A stretch of 64,000 bases of DNA from Minisyncoccota bacterium (GTDB lineage Bacteria; Patescibacteriota; Minisyncoccia; UBA6257; 2-01-FULL-56-20): NCBI GenBank assembly GCA_041664245.1, contig JBAYLC010000003.1, forward strand, positions 394 through 64,393, read 5' to 3'. Numbering within the stretch: position 1 is the stretch's first letter; each line of letters begins with the position of its first letter. The position numbers and the translations under genes were made by a program. The notes under the pieces are model-generated. The model was not told the origin of the DNA, did not search any database, and saw only the letters and a program-made list of their open reading frames with translations. Of this stretch, positions 7,642 to 49,669 are shown in pieces.

Positions 7642-8997
7642 TTACTCCTCCTGCGCCACCTCCTCAACCGGAATCACACTCCGATCGGTCGGCAAAGTGA
7701 AAAAGAAAGTTGTACCTCTATTTTCTTCCGACTCTGCCCAAACTTTTCCGCCGTGAGCCGCCACAATATTTTTATTAATATATAACCCTAAACCAGAACC
7801 TTCAGTCTGGAACTTAATCGCGTTCTCGGCTCGGAAAAATTTCATGAACATTTTTTTTAGTTCTATCTGTGGAATGCCAATTCCTGTATCTTTTATACTC
7901 ACCTGAATAAACGGCTGGTCGGGCAACTTTTCCACTTTTACCACTACCTCGCCATTTTGAACATTGTACCGAATCGCGTTATCTAAAAAGTTGTAAAAAA
8001 CCACCGAGAGTTTATCTTGATTCGTCATCACTTCCGGCAGCGGCTCGCCCGGCCTGTCAAAGTAAATTTTGATTCCTGCCCGCTTCGCTTGAGGCAAAAC
8101 ATTCGTCAAAATTTTATTAATGAAATCAATTAAATCAGTTGGTTCAAAAGTGTAACCAAATCTTCCCTCTTCAATCTTCGCTACATTAATCAAATCTTCA
8201 ATTATTTTTAAAAGTAGCTGGCCGGCCACCAGCGCGTTTTGAACCAAAGTTTTACTATTCTCATCAAGATTTTTATCTTGGCTTAGTGATTCAAGCGCCC
8301 AATTCACATTTGTGATTGGCCCCCTTAATTGATGGGAGGCCACCGTCACAAACTCGCTTTTTGAACGAAGTAAAAACTGCTCCCTCGTCCGGTCGCTTAT
8401 GGTTTTCATAAAACCTAAAAGATTCCCTCCCTCGTCCGTCACTGGCATTGTTGTTACTCGAAAATCCACCTCGGGGCCATCAAAAGAAAGATCGATCACT
8501 TGAGGATATTGTCCCGATTTTGACCGATTAATTACGGTTGGCGCGAGTGTCGGGAAAATCACCTGTGTGAAGAGTTTCCAACCAATTTGCCCTGCATCTT
8601 GCGGCGTAATCACTCTTCCTAAAACTTCACTAACCCTGATGTTAAAAAGCCGCTCCGCCGCCGGATTAAAAAACAAAATTCTAAACTCTCGGTCATAAAC
8701 AATAAGCGCGTCATCAAAATTCAAAATTATATTTTTAAACTCCCTATTTTCGGTTCGAATCCTGTAGTTTAGGGTAAATATTCTAAAAACCAAAAACATA
8801 ACAAGAAGTCCAACCAGCGCCAAAATTCCTCCATAGGTTACCGCCGATTGCGTATCCAGTTTATAAAAATAAAAACCTATCCCGCCTAAAATAATTAAAA
8901 TCAAAAGCGGTATCAAGAAAAATTTATAAAATTTGATCTCCCCGCCATATTCTGAACTACCCAACACCCCGATTTTTTTATCAAAAAATACTGCCAT
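7642..8997 (-). CDS. sensor histidine kinase (2 TM, PAS-like, HisKA + HATPase_c)
   Basis: It has an H-box (ASHQLRGPIT), an N-box (FYNFLDNAIRY) and a G-box (GSGLGLYI), plus N-terminal TM helices. No response regulator is adjacent. Confidence 0.85.
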   Translation of the reverse strand: MAVFFDKKIGVLGSSEYGGEIKFYKFFLIPLLILIILGGIGFYFYKLDTQSAVTYGGILALVGLLVMFLVFRIFTLNYRIRTENREFKNIILNFDDALIVYDREFRILFFNPAAERLFNIRVSEVLGRVITPQDAGQIGWKLFTQVIFPTLAPTVINRSKSGQYPQVIDLSFDGPEVDFRVTTMPVTDEGGNLLGFMKTISDRTREQFLLRSKSEFVTVASHQLRGPITNVNWALESLSQDKNLDENSKTLVQNALVAGQLLLKIIEDLINVAKIEEGRFGYTFEPTDLIDFINKILTNVLPQAKRAGIKIYFDRPGEPLPEVMTNQDKLSVVFYNFLDNAIRYNVQNGEVVVKVEKLPDQPFIQVSIKDTGIGIPQIELKKMFMKFFRAENAIKFQTEGSGLGLYINKNIVAAHGGKVWAESEENRGTTFFFTLPTDRSVIPVEEVAQEE

Positions 8998-24717: not shown

Positions 24718-24939
24718 TTTATATGTAATTAATTTTTATTAATGGATTCTAATAGTCGACCCCTATGTATCCTTTCGCAAATGATGCCGCTACAAAGACA
24801 AAAATATTACAAAAACTCCCTATAGGTCTTTGTAACTCATCTTCGAAATATTTGATTATCTTCCTATTTCTAAACAACCGACAAACCAAACACAACCCAA
24901 AAATAATTCTAATAGACTTTTATGTAGGATCGAGATAAC

Positions 24940-25296
24940 TTACTTGTCTTGGTTGTTCATTTTTACTGCGGCCTCTGATGTGGACACAGTTTTACTCATC
25001 AGAAACAATCGAACGATTGCGAGAGCAATCATCCAATACACCAACATTGCCAAAAGAGTCGTCCACTCAAAAATATTACCCTGAACAGTTGCCGCTGGAA
25101 AAACTGCAATGAATGGAGCGATGAACGGCCACGTAAGAGCATAAATAAAACTCGTAAATCCAGCTTCGGGATTTGCTCCTGCTAACTTGAGTGCAAAACG
25201 AAACACAAATAATATCTCGGCGATCGAAAGAAGATACCAAGCAACTTGGATGCCCCTGAATAACGGTTTCGTTGTAGGAGAATTATATGAATTCAT
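24940..25296 (-). CDS. YggT-like integral membrane protein
   Basis: The 118 aa product has 3-4 TM helices and an RFALKL-type motif. Confidence 0.5.
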   Translation of the reverse strand: MNSYNSPTTKPLFRGIQVAWYLLSIAEILFVFRFALKLAGANPEAGFTSFIYALTWPFIAPFIAVFPAATVQGNIFEWTTLLAMLVYWMIALAIVRLFLMSKTVSTSEAAVKMNNQDK

Positions 25297-25380
25297 AAAT
25301 GATTAATTTTTAAATAAACATATGGATTATCAGGGCCGACCCCCCTGTATTTTTGCTTATTCGTTAAATAAGTAGAACCT

Positions 25381-25533
25381 TCATGAAATTGGATTCCTTC
25401 CTTGAATAAGGCGAATTAGAATTACAACCACGGCCACCACGAGTAAAATGTGTATAAACCAACCGATAGCGTATACGCCAACAACGCCCAAAATCCAAAA
25501 AAGTAAAAAGATAATTGCAATAGTATAAAGCAT
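25381..25533 (-). CDS. lmo0937-family small membrane protein (50 aa)
   Basis: I translated MLYTIAIIFLLFWILGVVGVYAIGWFIHILLVVAVVVILIRLIQGRNPIS manually. It replaces the overlapping 79 aa track ORF (25364-25603), which is in a different frame. It is paralogous to 27023-27169. Confidence 0.65.
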   Translation of the reverse strand: MLYTIAIIFLLFWILGVVGVYAIGWFIHILLVVAVVVILIRLIQGRNPIS

Positions 25534-25620
25534 ATTTATTTGGGTAAAATCTTGATAAAACTTTTAAGAACGCGATGTGTGAATTGGAATAACAAGATTT
25601 CAATTCTAACTATTTGATTT

Positions 25621-26220
25621 TTATAAATTACTTTTAAGCTCATTAATTTCTTTTTCTAATTTTTCAATATGGACCTCTAATCTTTGTGTCCGTTCCGCTA
25701 ACTTGCTTTCTAGTTGATTTGCATGACCAGCCAACGTTTCGGCGACAGCCATCATTTCCGTAACATCTTCCATGGCAAGAAGTATGATGGGGGGGAATAT
25801 TTTTGAATTAACATCGCCCTTAGCCGATTTAGAATGAATCTGACGGGCATTTAAAATCATCACCCTGTGTCCAATAAAAGGAAATTCATGAACAACTTCA
25901 AAACCTTTAAAAAAGGTGTTTTTAGGAAGAATATCTTCGAGAAGCTTCTGAAGGGAAGGAATATTCCATTGGCCATTCCCCAATTCGTAAACAATTCTAT
26001 TCTCGGTATCTTCCGGCAAAACTTTAAAAGCTTCATAAAAAGATTCGTTCGCCGCCATAACATGAAAATCTTTATCAAGAATCAAAATCGGTTCTCGCAC
26101 AACATCTACTACCGTCCTAATGTAGGTCCAGCTTTCTTCCCATAAACGCTCAAAAAAATCAGTCCCGACGGCTTCAAGAGCTTGCCCTACGTCTTTTTCG
26201 GTTGTTTCGGTTGTTTCCAT
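25621..26220 (-). CDS. PAS-domain protein with C-terminal coiled coil (putative sensor / sigma-factor regulator)
   Basis: It has a PAS fold (ILILDKDFHVMAANESFYEAF) and a coiled-coil tail. It is divergent from the ECF sigma gene. Confidence 0.7.
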   Translation of the reverse strand: METTETTEKDVGQALEAVGTDFFERLWEESWTYIRTVVDVVREPILILDKDFHVMAANESFYEAFKVLPEDTENRIVYELGNGQWNIPSLQKLLEDILPKNTFFKGFEVVHEFPFIGHRVMILNARQIHSKSAKGDVNSKIFPPIILLAMEDVTEMMAVAETLAGHANQLESKLAERTQRLEVHIEKLEKEINELKSNL

Positions 26221-26433
26221 GTAAATGAAGACGTTGGAAAGTTTGAATTATTGCGTATCGCTAACAAGATACTTAATATGCTATGCTACAAAAGCAGAGT
26301 ACCTCTCTCTTTAGCTATTGTAATATCAGCGTAATAGGATTTATTCAGTTAGATCAAATAATCCACCGTAGAATATAGATATTACCCTTACTATTACAGC
26401 AATGTCGTAATACTAGTGTAATAAAACTCTGCC

Positions 26434-27000
26434 ATGTCCGTCATAACCTATACAATGACCCCAGAACAAGAAATACAACAACAAGCAGTTTTAACTGCAG
26501 CGCACCAAGATTACTCGAAAGGGCTCAATTTACACGCATTTTTAAAGGTTAGTAATCGTTCAACTGGCGAAGACTTAGTTCAAGAAACATTCATTAAAAC
26601 ATGGGGATACCTAGTTAAAGGAGGAAAAATTGATTTGATGAAAGCTTTTCTCTACCACATCCTAAACAACTTGATTGTGGATGAGTATCGAAAACGCAAA
26701 ACAACATCACTTGATATTCTAATCGAAAAGGGCCATGAGCCCAACCACGAGCCCAGCACTGACAACAATCCCAAGCTCCTCTTCGATATTTTAGACGGAA
26801 AAGCGGCACTCCTCTTAATCAATCGCCTTCCTGAAAAATATAAAAAAGTGATGCATATGAAATACGTTCAAGATCTCTCTCTAAAAGAAATGTCTTTAAT
26901 CACCGGCCAATCAAAAAACTCTATTGCCGTACAAGCATACCGAGGACTCGAAAAACTCAAATTATTATATAATCCCTTACGTACAAATGGTAACGTCTAA
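26434..27000 (+). CDS. RNA polymerase sigma-70 factor, ECF subfamily
   Basis: Region 2 is DLVQETFIKTW..LYHILNNLIVDEYRKRK. Region 4 is LSLKEMSLITGQSKNSIAVQAYRGLEKLK. Confidence 0.85.
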   Translation: MSVITYTMTPEQEIQQQAVLTAAHQDYSKGLNLHAFLKVSNRSTGEDLVQETFIKTWGYLVKGGKIDLMKAFLYHILNNLIVDEYRKRKTTSLDILIEKGHEPNHEPSTDNNPKLLFDILDGKAALLLINRLPEKYKKVMHMKYVQDLSLKEMSLITGQSKNSIAVQAYRGLEKLKLLYNPLRTNGNV

Positions 27001-27022
27001 TTATAAAACCTAATTTTAAAAC

Positions 27023-27169
27023 ATGCTTTGGACAATTATTATAATCTTAATAGTTTTATGGCTTCTTGGGTTTAGTTTCAAAGTAGGCGGTAATCTAATT
27101 CACACCTTACTCGTTATTGCGCTTATTGTGGTTATCGTTAAACTCCTATCCTAATAAGTTCTCTTAATT
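27023..27169 (+). CDS. lmo0937-family small membrane protein (48 aa)
   Basis: I translated MLWTIIIILIVLWLLGFSFKVGGNLIHTLLVIARLLWLSLNSYPNKFS manually. It starts 23 nt downstream of the ECF sigma gene. Confidence 0.55.
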
Positions 27170-27190
27170 AACAAGTTTAAACATCCCCTC

Positions 27191-28372
27191 CTAATTCGTT
27201 TTAAAAAAACTCTTCTTCCCAATTCTCAAAATTTCTCCGCCCTTCAAATTAAGAAGCTCTTTTGGATCCTTTTTAGTTTCTCCATCAACACTAAATCCGC
27301 CTTGCTCAACAAGCCGCCACGCTTCACTTTTACTCTTCACCACTCCGCTTTGATAAACTAAATCCACTACACTCATCTTTTTGTTTTTTACTTTTAGAAT
27401 CGGTAAATCTCCGCTGAATTCTTTTTTAGAAAAAATCTTATCAAAATTTTCTCTCGCCGCCCGGGCCGCTTTCTCACCGTGATAGATTTTTACAATTTCA
27501 TATCCCAGCTTCGCCTTCAAATCTCGAGGCAGTAATTCCTTCTTTAAGTTTTTAATCTCGTCTGAATTTAAATCAGTACAAAATTCAAAATACCTCTCCA
27601 TCATCTTATCCGGGATTTTCATTACCTTGCCAAACATCTGATCTGAAAATTCCGAAAGTCCGATGTAATTACCATAGCTCTTGCTCATTTTTTTCTCCCC
27701 ATCAGTTCCTTCCAAGAGTGGCAAAGTCATCACGTCTTGTTCTTTCATTCCAAAATGTCTTTGTACCCTCCGTCCCATAAGTAGATTAAACTTCTGATCC
27801 GTCCCGCCGAGTTCAATGCTCGCTTTAATCTTTAGAGAATCATAACCTTGAAAAACCGAATACAAAACTTCGAGTAAAGTAATATCATGTCCCTCGTCTA
27901 GTCGTTTTTTAAAATCCGCCCGTTTCAAAACCTGTTGGATACTGCTCGCTCCCGCCAATTCTAAAATCGCCTTCACTCCTCCCTCTTTAAACCACCGGCT
28001 ATTATAAACCACCTCCGTTTTTTTTATATCAATTATTTTCGCGGCTTGAGCTAAATAACTTTTCATATTGCCCTTCACTTCTTTTTCAGTAAGCGGCTTC
28101 CTAGTTTCGTTTTTTCCCGACGGGTCGCCAATCGTTCCGGTAAAATCGCCGATTACTAAAACAACTTTGTGTCCTAATTTTTGAAAATCTCTAAGTTTTC
28201 TTAAAACAACAGCGTGACCAAGATGCAAATCAGGCGCCGTCGGATCAATCCCAAATTTAACCCTTAGCTTATCGCCACCAAGAAGCCTTTTCTTGAGGTT
28301 TTCTTTTTCAATCACTTCCTCAACATTTCGGCTTAAAAGTTTCTCTACTTCCTCAGTTTTATTAATTGCCAT
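27191..28372 (-). CDS. tyrS: tyrosine--tRNA ligase
   Basis: It has HIGH (DLHLGH), KMSKS and a C-terminal S4 domain. The start is likely MAINK at 28372, because a clpP terminator hairpin lies in 28403-28430, although the track ORF runs to 28441. Confidence 0.9.
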   Translation of the reverse strand: MAINKTEEVEKLLSRNVEEVIEKENLKKRLLGGDKLRVKFGIDPTAPDLHLGHAVVLRKLRDFQKLGHKVVLVIGDFTGTIGDPSGKNETRKPLTEKEVKGNMKSYLAQAAKIIDIKKTEVVYNSRWFKEGGVKAILELAGASSIQQVLKRADFKKRLDEGHDITLLEVLYSVFQGYDSLKIKASIELGGTDQKFNLLMGRRVQRHFGMKEQDVMTLPLLEGTDGEKKMSKSYGNYIGLSEFSDQMFGKVMKIPDKMMERYFEFCTDLNSDEIKNLKKELLPRDLKAKLGYEIVKIYHGEKAARAARENFDKIFSKKEFSGDLPILKVKNKKMSVVDLVYQSGVVKSKSEAWRLVEQGGFSVDGETKKDPKELLNLKGGEILRIGKKSFFKTN

Positions 28373-49126: not shown

Positions 49127-49349
49127 GTTTTTCTCCTTGTCTGCCGGTATTTCTCCGACAAGAAATGGGTTATTGCCTATATATTTAGTCAGTCAATCTA
49201 ATTATCAAATTATCAAGTTGCCCTAATAGTATAGCACGAATACTATCACTTTGTCAAGTGGCACTTTTGAGTTCATTTCCGTCCATCTATCACCCCTCTT
49301 CTGACAATAAAAGCCTTGGTTTACAAGGCTTTTATTTCAATTCCGTCGA

Positions 49350-49669
49350 TGTGGAGATGGGCGGAATCGAACCGCCGTGTAAAAGTAATATCAGTTAGCC
49401 ATCTACGAGCGTAGTTTCGCCGAAGCGAGACAAAGTTTGCTCTATTAGTTTAGTTCCGCTCCCCTAGAGCGAAAGAACAGAACGAGCCTCCTTATATAAG
49501 ACCGGACTTAGCCTAAGAGGCCCAGACCAGCCGATCCTCCGGCGTTATGCGTAAGCAAACGCTGGAGCTGCAACTTTTTGGTTGGCAGATATAAATTGTT
49601 TGCCAGATTAACGAGTTAGCGCTCGGCTCGCCGACTAATGACCTACTCCTATCGAAGCCATACATCCCC
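49350..49669 (-). ncRNA. ssrA: transfer-messenger RNA (tmRNA, ssrA)
   Basis: The 5' end is GGGGATGTATGGCTTCGATAGGAG and the 3' tRNA-like end is GGCGGTTCGATTCCGCCCATCTCCA. The acceptor pairs GGGGATG with CATCTCC. The internal tag reading frame ends ..AAPAFAYA-TAA. A terminator hairpin follows at 49302-49332. Confidence 0.85.

Follow-up and report, generated by a model that had tools for sequence, protein, structure and literature searches.

The sigma/PAS locus

The DNA analysed here (the window) is a 64,000-nucleotide stretch of contig JBAYLC010000003.1, assembly GCA_041664245.1, from a Minisyncoccota bacterium, and our subject is a compact locus within it, in which the gene of an extracytoplasmic function (ECF) sigma factor is transcribed divergently from that of a stand-alone PAS protein and each is followed on its own strand by a gene for a small membrane protein of the DUF5670/lmo0937 family (small B and small A respectively). 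All four open reading frames (ORFs) lie where a first-pass annotation of the same DNA, made from the letters alone, had placed them. On balance we lean towards reading the locus as a conserved alternative-sigma switch of a Paceibacteria-type bacterium of the candidate phyla radiation (CPR, Patescibacteria). The features of the module are listed below; PWM denotes the position weight matrix described further on.

25381..25533 (-): small A, a 50-aa membrane protein of the DUF5670/lmo0937 family, whose gene begins 87 nt beyond that of PAS
25621..26220 (-): stand-alone PAS protein of 199 aa, a putative sensor and candidate partner or regulator of sigma; N-terminal helix, then PAS core, then long C-terminal coiled-coil helix, with no output domain
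26230..26254 (-): predicted ECF-type PAS promoter; -35 GCAATA (26254-26249), 15-nt spacer, -10 CGTC (26233-26230), 9 nt to the ATG at 26220
26279..26287 (+): putative extended -10 element of housekeeping type, TGCTATGCT, directed towards the sigma gene
26320..26336 (+): distal tandem GTAATA-N5-GTAATA, with GATC at the -10 position in the window and a PWM score of -1.9
26407..26423 (+): proximal tandem GTAATA-N5-GTAATA; the downstream copy is the predicted sigma -35, the upstream copy (26407-26412) lies 11 bp away
26418..26442 (+): predicted ECF-type, autoregulatory sigma promoter; -35 GTAATA (26418-26423), 15-nt spacer, -10 CGTC (26439-26442), 12 nt to the ATG at 26455
26455..27000 (+): ECF (group 4) sigma factor, 181 aa from its likely start; the mechanical ORF spans 26434-27000 (188 aa)
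27023..27154 (+): small B, DUF5670/lmo0937 membrane protein, 43 aa, 22 nt after the sigma gene

The sigma protein matches the Pfam models Sigma70_r2 (29.0 bits, cut-off 24) and Sigma70_r4_2 (39.2 bits, cut-off 25.7) and passes the ECF superfamily model TIGR02937 (53.6 bits, cut-off 42.9), and Sigma70_r3 gives no match at E<=1. Region 2 ends near residue 89 and region 4 begins near residue 126, with a gap of about 37 aa, so that both criteria tested for an ECF (group 4) sigma-70 factor, the presence of regions 2 and 4 and the lack of Sigma70_r3, place the protein in that class. The solved structures nearest to it are those of SigH, SigW and SigE. Its 2,628 relatives are mostly about 170 aa long, the best 120 of the 2,628 being 65-98% identical to it. 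The first-pass annotation had the sigma gene run from 26434 to 27000; the ORF and its ECF identity stand, and only the start is moved, most likely to the ATG at 26455 (M8), because the orthologues of about 170 aa begin MTP(E/K)Q and because the ATG at 26434 falls within the spacer of the predicted promoter.

For the PAS protein the Pfam score is a borderline one, PAS_4 being matched at 23.1 bits, exactly the gathering threshold, and the assignment to the PAS superfamily draws on the predicted fold as well. An AlphaFold model of moderate confidence (pLDDT 73.5) presents an N-terminal helix, a PAS core (residues 45-152) and a single long helix (154-198), and Foldseek aligns it with probability 1.0 to many solved PAS and LOV domains, the best structural matches being PpsR Q-PAS1, short LOV proteins of helix-PAS-helix build, and the PAS domains of BvgS and FixL. 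Identity to these is no higher than 12-16%, and a sequence search of solved structures with the PAS profile returned nothing below E=0.1. The shared architecture, an N-terminal helix, a PAS core and a long C-terminal helix with no effector domain, makes short LOV and other stand-alone PAS proteins (PpSB1-LOV, SBW25-LOV) and PpsR Q-PAS1 its closest structural parallels. Unlike the LOV proteins, it contains no cysteine at all, none of the conserved alignment columns holds one and the flavin-adduct cysteine of the GXNCRFLQ motif is missing; it is therefore not a LOV photoreceptor. Relatives number 2,952, of which the best 120 are 68-97% identical and about 193 aa long; an alignment of 28 sequences has 54 invariant columns, His111, Trp85, Asn58 and Asn124 of the window protein being among the invariant residues, and with a single genome taken for each species 585 encoded relatives were counted. 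Pfam finds neither a sigma-like nor a receiver domain in the protein.

The divergent pairing between an ECF sigma factor and a PAS protein bearing a C-terminal coiled coil, as the first-pass annotation had described it, is upheld by the Pfam and TIGR02937 matches and by the predicted helix 154-198. Its remark that no classical anti-sigma gene adjoins the sigma factor also holds: searches with Pfam and NCBIfam for anti-sigma domains (class I ASD/ZAS, RskA, zf-HC2, the H-x3-C-x2-C zinc motif) gave no match in the PAS protein, in either of the small proteins or in any neighbouring ORF, and none in the called genes of the related loci L001, L003, L085 and L086 (related loci are given here by L numbers). 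It had likewise set aside a 79-aa ORF (25364-25603) as lying in the wrong frame; this ORF does overlap small A out of frame, and no family model supports it.

Conservation of the pair

The pairing of the two genes was counted over 33 non-redundant Patescibacteria loci that carry a close orthologue of the PAS protein. In 22 of the 33 the sigma gene is adjacent to and divergent from the PAS gene and in 28 it lies within 4 kb, the exceptions being mostly short contigs. Many PAS and sigma relatives come from contigs of the same length, and on contigs of 588 kb and 914 kb PAS and sigma adjoin each other and are divergent, within surroundings that otherwise differ. By the names that the homologues carry, the organism belongs to Patescibacteria/Paceibacteria. 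Loci that have been rearranged retain the pairing as well (L005, L019 and L035): in L019 and L035 one gene of the predicted regulon stands between PAS and sigma, and in L005 (2491-4582) two PAS paralogues flank the sigma gene in the order PAS-sigma-PAS on one strand. In L005, a DUF5670 gene is found divergent from the first PAS gene, behind a leaderless sigma-type promoter of its own.

Two close relatives allow a finer comparison. The 97% relative (L085) retains both small ORFs, and the 83% relative (L086) retains small B and lacks both small A and the gene of a YGGT-like membrane protein that follows it in the window; these two genes are carried on an 805-bp insertion in the window (24814-25618) relative to L086. 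Between the window and L086 the sigma and PAS proteins are each 83% identical against 94-99% for the flanking proteins, which argues that the pair diverges, or is exchanged, as a unit. At the nucleotide level the segment that holds sigma, PAS and small B (window 25619-27304, L086 3-1612) is 78% identical and its flanks are 88-92% identical, which suggests either exchange of a cassette or faster evolution of the switch.

Co-occurrence across related genomes, raised by the first-pass annotation for all three families, holds for the sigma/PAS pair and does not extend to DUF5670, a gene of which lies nearby in only 11 of the 33 loci. The symmetric arrangement on which that annotation had centred its description also fails as a feature of the module, since none of the other loci among the 33 has a DUF5670 gene on both sides and L086 is without small A. 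Read from these comparisons, the conserved core is the sigma/PAS pair and the symmetric layout is specific to a lineage. What is upheld is the broader claim of a genuine regulatory module.

A shared promoter motif in the intergenic region

Alignment of orthologous sigma/PAS intergenic regions yielded a motif common to both genes, tGTAAT(A/G)-N15-CG(G/T)C. On the PAS side, in most of 23 loci, its end is 9-10 nt from the start codon; on the sigma side, in most of 17, the distance is 8-14 nt. In the window the sigma promoter matches this motif exactly (PWM 18.7 bits) and the PAS promoter matches it with one mismatch (18.1 bits). ECF promoters characteristically have a -35 element ending in AA(C/T), a 16-nt spacer and a -10 element starting with CG, as in the SigW promoter TGAAAC-N16-CGTA, and re-reading our motif as TGTAAT-N16-CGGC gives that layout. 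Because the layout is of ECF type, GTAATA is read as the putative -35 element and CG(G/T)C as the -10. The first-pass annotation had noticed repeated CGTAATA motifs here and offered them as ECF -10 elements, compatible with autoregulation; the repeats are real, forming two tandem pairs, and they appear to be part of an autoregulatory ECF-type promoter, the place of GTAATA within it being the -35. As a -10, GTAATA was rejected: no conserved element stands 16-18 nt upstream of it, and it is followed after exactly 15 nt by CG(G/T)C, which in turn precedes the start codons by 9-14 nt. Given the short distance to the ATG and the lack of any Shine-Dalgarno-like sequence, the sigma and PAS messages would be leaderless or nearly so. 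ECF sigma factors usually autoregulate and are co-encoded with, or lie beside, their regulators (PMC7826278).

The tandem GTAATA-N5-GTAATA occurs at 26320-26336 and 26407-26423, the sole two matches in the 64 kb against 0.17 expected, and the pair is present in 13 of 21 orthologous intergenic regions. Inspection by eye finds an extra GTAAT 10-11 bp upstream in 12 of 17 sigma-side promoters and at none of the PAS-side ones. As a whole promoter the tandem was rejected, its 11-bp period being wrong for a -35/-10 pair; the period points to a protein that binds along a single face of the DNA. In L001 and L009 the distal tandem has CGGC 15 nt further on and so forms a second complete promoter, and in the window it is probably weak or a vestige because its -10 position reads GATC. 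Orthologous second-GTAAT or tandem sites are also seen in L001, L009, L013, L016 and L034, and in the window the tandem is repeated some 87 bp further upstream. The extended -10 element that faces the sigma gene has counterparts (TGnTAnnnT at a comparable position, in the same direction) in 16 of 21 orthologous intergenic regions and probably gives basal expression of the sigma gene that does not depend on the sigma factor itself. A TATAGCGAAC-like box directly upstream of the PAS-side -35 is conserved in L001, L006, L013 and L016 and partly kept in the window (26221-26260). The Rfam scan of the window gave no match in the intergenic region.

The small membrane proteins and the predicted regulon

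Both small proteins score above the curated cut-offs of their family over their full length. For small A, DUF5670 (PF18919) gives 49.4 bits (E=4.9e-13, cut-off 23.5) and NF033488 (lmo0937_fam_TM) 49.7 bits (cut-off 30); for small B the figures are 62.6 bits (E=3.6e-17) and 57.4 bits. The assignment to lmo0937 that the first-pass annotation had proposed is confirmed in this way, as is its statement that the two are paralogues (BLASTP E=2e-5). Compared with L085, small B has five synonymous and no non-synonymous changes, and small A five synonymous and seven non-synonymous changes. Judged by sequence, the small ORFs are genuine members of the lmo0937 family, and purifying selection acts on them. 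Small B is kept after the sigma gene in L085, L086, L009, L013, L015 and L019; among DUF5670 proteins of the 49-50 aa type, those of L022, L034 and L036 have a sigma-type promoter of their own and that of L007 follows PAS. An ORF of 121 aa in L069 (2356-2721, plus strand), on a contig labelled 'uncultured archaeon', begins with a DUF5670-like segment, MLETIIVILFVMWLLG, and scores very strongly against an ad hoc DUF5670 profile; it could represent an extended or repeated version of this family.

Within the window neither small A, small B nor the YGGT-like gene has a promoter of its own (the best upstream PWM scores are below 0), and a generic scan for sigma-70 promoters and terminators gave nothing useful for the module and no terminator separating small A or the YGGT-like gene from PAS, or small B from sigma. 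As they lack promoters, small A is probably read through from the PAS promoter and small B is probably co-transcribed with the sigma gene. The 11 DUF5670 genes found near related loci are placed directly after sigma in four cases (the 41-43 aa type), directly after PAS in one, behind their own copy of the promoter in four, and about 1 kb away in two. The first-pass annotation had considered the tiny membrane proteins as possible regulators of the sigma factor; they appear instead to be outputs, members of sigma-dependent units, because nine of the 11 stand directly behind sigma or PAS or behind their own promoter, and because the family namesake, Listeria lmo0937, is likewise strongly sigma-B-dependent (PMC2813243, PMC7690807).

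The weight matrix was built from 39 sites. Over the 64 kb its three highest scores fall on the gene of a secreted peptidoglycan-binding protein, the sigma gene and the PAS gene, and every other score is at or below 13.2 bits, the level of noise. The remaining features of the window referred to in this text are:

7642-8997 (-): cytoplasmic PAS-HisKA-HATPase histidine kinase, 451 aa
24058..24717 (-): secreted peptidoglycan-binding protein (Pfam PG_binding_1 with an fn3/Pur_ac_phosph_N-like domain), predicted regulon member
24786..24810 (-): predicted sigma-type promoter GTAATA-N15-CGGC, exact motif, PWM 25.5 bits, 68 nt upstream of the peptidoglycan-binding gene
24940..25296 (-): membrane protein of 118 aa, YGGT-like, its gene downstream of small A; the Pfam match to YGGT (E=1.2e-5) falls just short of the gathering threshold

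Orthologues of the peptidoglycan-binding protein stand behind the same promoter, beside PAS or sigma, in L003, L014, L016, L018, L019, L024, L037 and L039. YGGT-like orthologues in L010 and L038 come directly after PAS, behind a sigma-type promoter of their own, and in the window the YGGT-like gene is probably the last of the PAS operon. The likely transcription units of the window are thus sigma-small B, PAS-small A-YGGT and the peptidoglycan-binding gene.

With the training promoters masked, a control that is independent of the sites used to train the matrix, 30 further sites of at least 18 bits are found in 291 kb of CPR loci against 0.3 in shuffled sequence, and the 245 kb of non-CPR loci, which likewise contain the PAS module, have none. 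The genes that recur behind these sites encode secreted PG_binding_1 proteins (often with fn3-like domains), DUF5670 proteins, Transgly_assoc proteins of the GlsB/YeaQ/YmgE type (82-84 aa), YGGT-like proteins, sortase, fasciclin, an ice-binding-like protein with PG_binding and other surface-repeat proteins. Small cysteine-rich ORFs of 35-48 aa, which have LVC...HCDCEK in common and no Pfam match, start 4-9 nt after a sigma-type promoter in L009 (between sigma and PAS) and L022 (3134-3270, plus strand); they could be a metal-binding regulon member or a regulator.

The wider neighbourhood of the module encodes, besides the YGGT-like and PG_binding_1/fn3-like proteins, TyrRS, ClpP, H+-pyrophosphatase, NusA, an HlyD-like protein and FtsH. 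The Rfam scan returned only tRNAs (eight genes) and one tmRNA (49349-49669, minus strand). GC skew is negative in all 2-kb bins of the window (-0.03 to -0.36), independently of gene strand.

Discussion

The arrangement described here could operate as follows. A housekeeping-type extended -10 promoter would supply a basal level of the ECF sigma factor, which would then recognise its own promoter, TGTAAT(A/G)-N15-CG(G/T)C, and transcribe three units in the window: sigma with small B; PAS with small A and with the YGGT-like gene; and the gene of the peptidoglycan-binding protein. Further cell-surface and small membrane stress proteins would be under this promoter in related genomes. The PAS and coiled-coil protein would be a cytoplasmic sensor of some signal that binds the sigma factor and restrains it as an anti-sigma factor, closing a negative feedback loop. 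The parts of this scheme differ in strength. We hold with considerable confidence that the locus encodes an ECF sigma factor with an autoregulatory promoter and an envelope and small-membrane-protein regulon, and we infer that this sigma factor is the one that reads the shared promoter. That the PAS protein directly controls the sigma factor, as the first-pass annotation had suggested it might, and most simply as a soluble sensing anti-sigma factor, is a plausible but more tentative proposal, to which we give somewhat less than an even chance; both the binding and the sign of control are things that we infer, from the conserved linkage, the co-regulation, the lack of an output domain and the failure to find any other regulator.

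In its design the module would work like an autoregulated ECF sigma/anti-sigma pair, ordinary in principle and widely and tightly conserved, with an unusual partner. Like SigW-RsiW and SigE-RseA it has a sigma factor of two domains (regions 2 and 4) whose own gene is preceded by a promoter with a -35 ending in AA(C/T), a 16-nt spacer and a CG -10, together with a co-encoded and co-regulated partner and a regulon of envelope proteins. It differs from them in that the partner is a soluble PAS and coiled-coil protein with no anti-sigma domain, zinc motif or membrane span, is encoded divergently and not downstream, and in that the -35 is TGTAAT in place of GGAAC or TGAAAC and the messages would be nearly leaderless. 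The EcfG-NepR-PhyR system offers another parallel, a divergent gene pair driven on both sides by the promoter of the sigma factor itself; elsewhere its upstream sensing passes through PAS or LOV kinases, and its regulon is rich in small membrane stress proteins. The locus is not a member of that system, as only two conserved components are seen, NepR and PhyR are both lacking from the locus, and a span of about 4 kb, in the window as in the related loci inspected, encodes no second protein of receiver or sigma-like type. Lmo0937 of Listeria monocytogenes (DUF5670/NF033488) belongs to the same family of small two-helix membrane proteins and is under a stress-type alternative sigma factor, which there is the group 3 SigB and not an ECF factor, in another phylum. 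Cytoplasmic histidine kinases of split or multi-PAS type, from CPR and other phyla, offer a further parallel: modules in them are 45-53% identical to the PAS module of the window protein, signalling helix included, and in other CPR lineages a stand-alone PAS copy is translationally coupled to such a kinase. In our locus the gene beside PAS encodes a sigma factor, and a linked kinase is absent. A literature search found no published description of a sigma/PAS module, and the main text of the ECF reclassification paper mentions neither PAS nor CPR.

Several observations weigh against control of the sigma factor by the PAS protein, or against the scheme as a whole. The sigma factor reaches the curated cut-off for no named ECF group or equivalog (SigW, SigM, SigV, BldN, GFO_1088 and others), the best score being 66.9 bits for NF058625 against a cut-off of 130, and TIGR02937, a superfamily model, is the sole exception among the listed models, all others scoring it below cut-off. 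The core positions of the PWM were preset by the pattern with which the sites were collected, so that its information content at these positions is circular, and the roles of GTAATA as -35 and CG(G/T)C as -10 are assigned by position and analogy. In Pfam and in the search of solved structures the PAS protein resembles no known anti-sigma domain, and the gene order and shared promoter would fit it equally well as a mere member of the regulon. This last point leads to the main rival explanation, in which the PAS protein is only an output of the sigma factor and acts on some other partner, one possibility being that it serves a cytoplasmic PAS histidine kinase as a detachable sensor subunit, with no feedback on sigma, whose activity would be set otherwise, by transcription alone, by proteolysis or by an unlinked anti-sigma factor. 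In favour of this rival, the same PAS subfamily occurs mostly as repeated modules within large sensor kinases of many phyla, with stand-alone forms in only a few clusters, and distant stand-alone PAS and coiled-coil paralogues (45-51% identity) in six other CPR loci have neither a sigma neighbour nor the promoter and lie directly upstream of, or overlap, genes of PAS-PAS-HisKA-HATPase kinases followed by receiver genes. Being translationally coupled to kinases, these paralogues show that a protein of this family can serve one, and the histidine kinase at 7642-8997 of the window is homologous (E ~1e-46) to the kinases so coupled; a receiver query found no receiver gene in the window. Set against this, the sigma-linked orthologue group has no adjacent kinase, the pairing with sigma survives the rearrangements of L005, L019 and L035, and sigma and PAS have diverged in parallel, compared with the genes that flank them. 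We regard this rival as unlikely, though it deserves to be taken seriously. Because PAS paralogues adjoin kinases elsewhere (and one adjoins another ECF sigma factor) and a sigma factor here, the family looks like a detachable sensor subunit that works through whichever signalling partner is encoded with it, the partner in the present case being the sigma factor. The sigma-linked paralogue is in L061 (3944-5833), where a distant PAS and coiled-coil gene is followed by that of a different ECF sigma factor (176 aa) and then by that of a protein of 168 aa that contains a hydrophobic segment, matches nothing in Pfam and may be the anti-sigma factor of the L061 sigma.

Control could also be direct and of the opposite sign, the PAS protein being a positive partner of the sigma factor, either a stabiliser as PorX is for SigP or an anti-anti-sigma factor like PhyR, with a separate, unlinked anti-sigma factor. 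The layout recalls the alphaproteobacterial general stress locus, in which phyR is divergent from nepR-ecfG and both are sigma-dependent, and sigma factors stabilised by a partner are known from SigP and PorX (PMC7826278); no NepR-like or other anti-sigma candidate is conserved at the locus, however, and the PAS protein has no sigma-like or receiver domain, and we consider the idea improbable. Still less credible, and in our view very improbable, is that the DUF5670/lmo0937 proteins themselves regulate the sigma factor as minimal membrane anti-sigma factors. Small B does occupy the classical anti-sigma position after the sigma gene, here and in the six loci in which it is kept there, but the scarcity of DUF5670 genes among the related loci, the occurrence of several of them as separate units behind their own sigma-type promoter, and the status of the family namesake as a member of the sigma-B regulon and not its regulator all speak against it, and as read from their sequences these proteins of 43-50 aa offer little beyond two hydrophobic helices and almost no soluble surface for a sigma factor. 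Taken to its full extent, the anti-sigma reading of the PAS protein would make it a new class of soluble ligand-sensing anti-sigma factor, with no kinship to the known anti-sigma domains and recruited from a detachable sensor of the kind that serves histidine kinases in sister lineages, which together with the ECF sigma factor would form the main stress and cell-surface switch of Paceibacteria, acting through TGTAAT-N16-CGGC promoters and leaderless messages; this we put forward as a possibility, with more reserve than the direct control of sigma by PAS.

The genomes of Patescibacteria are tiny and their regulators few, and hardly any of their gene control has been characterised by experiment. 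For this group the analysis yields a proposed two-gene switch that recurs across it, and predicts both its promoter and its regulon, which would comprise proteins that bind the cell wall, surface proteins and small membrane proteins. As CPR bacteria are thought to be attached to hosts, the products of such a regulon would be expected to matter at the cell surface. The DUF5670/lmo0937 family gains a second, independent link to stress-sigma regulons, and if the PAS protein does bind the sigma factor, it would represent a new kind of anti-sigma factor and add a cytoplasmic route of sensing to ECF signalling.

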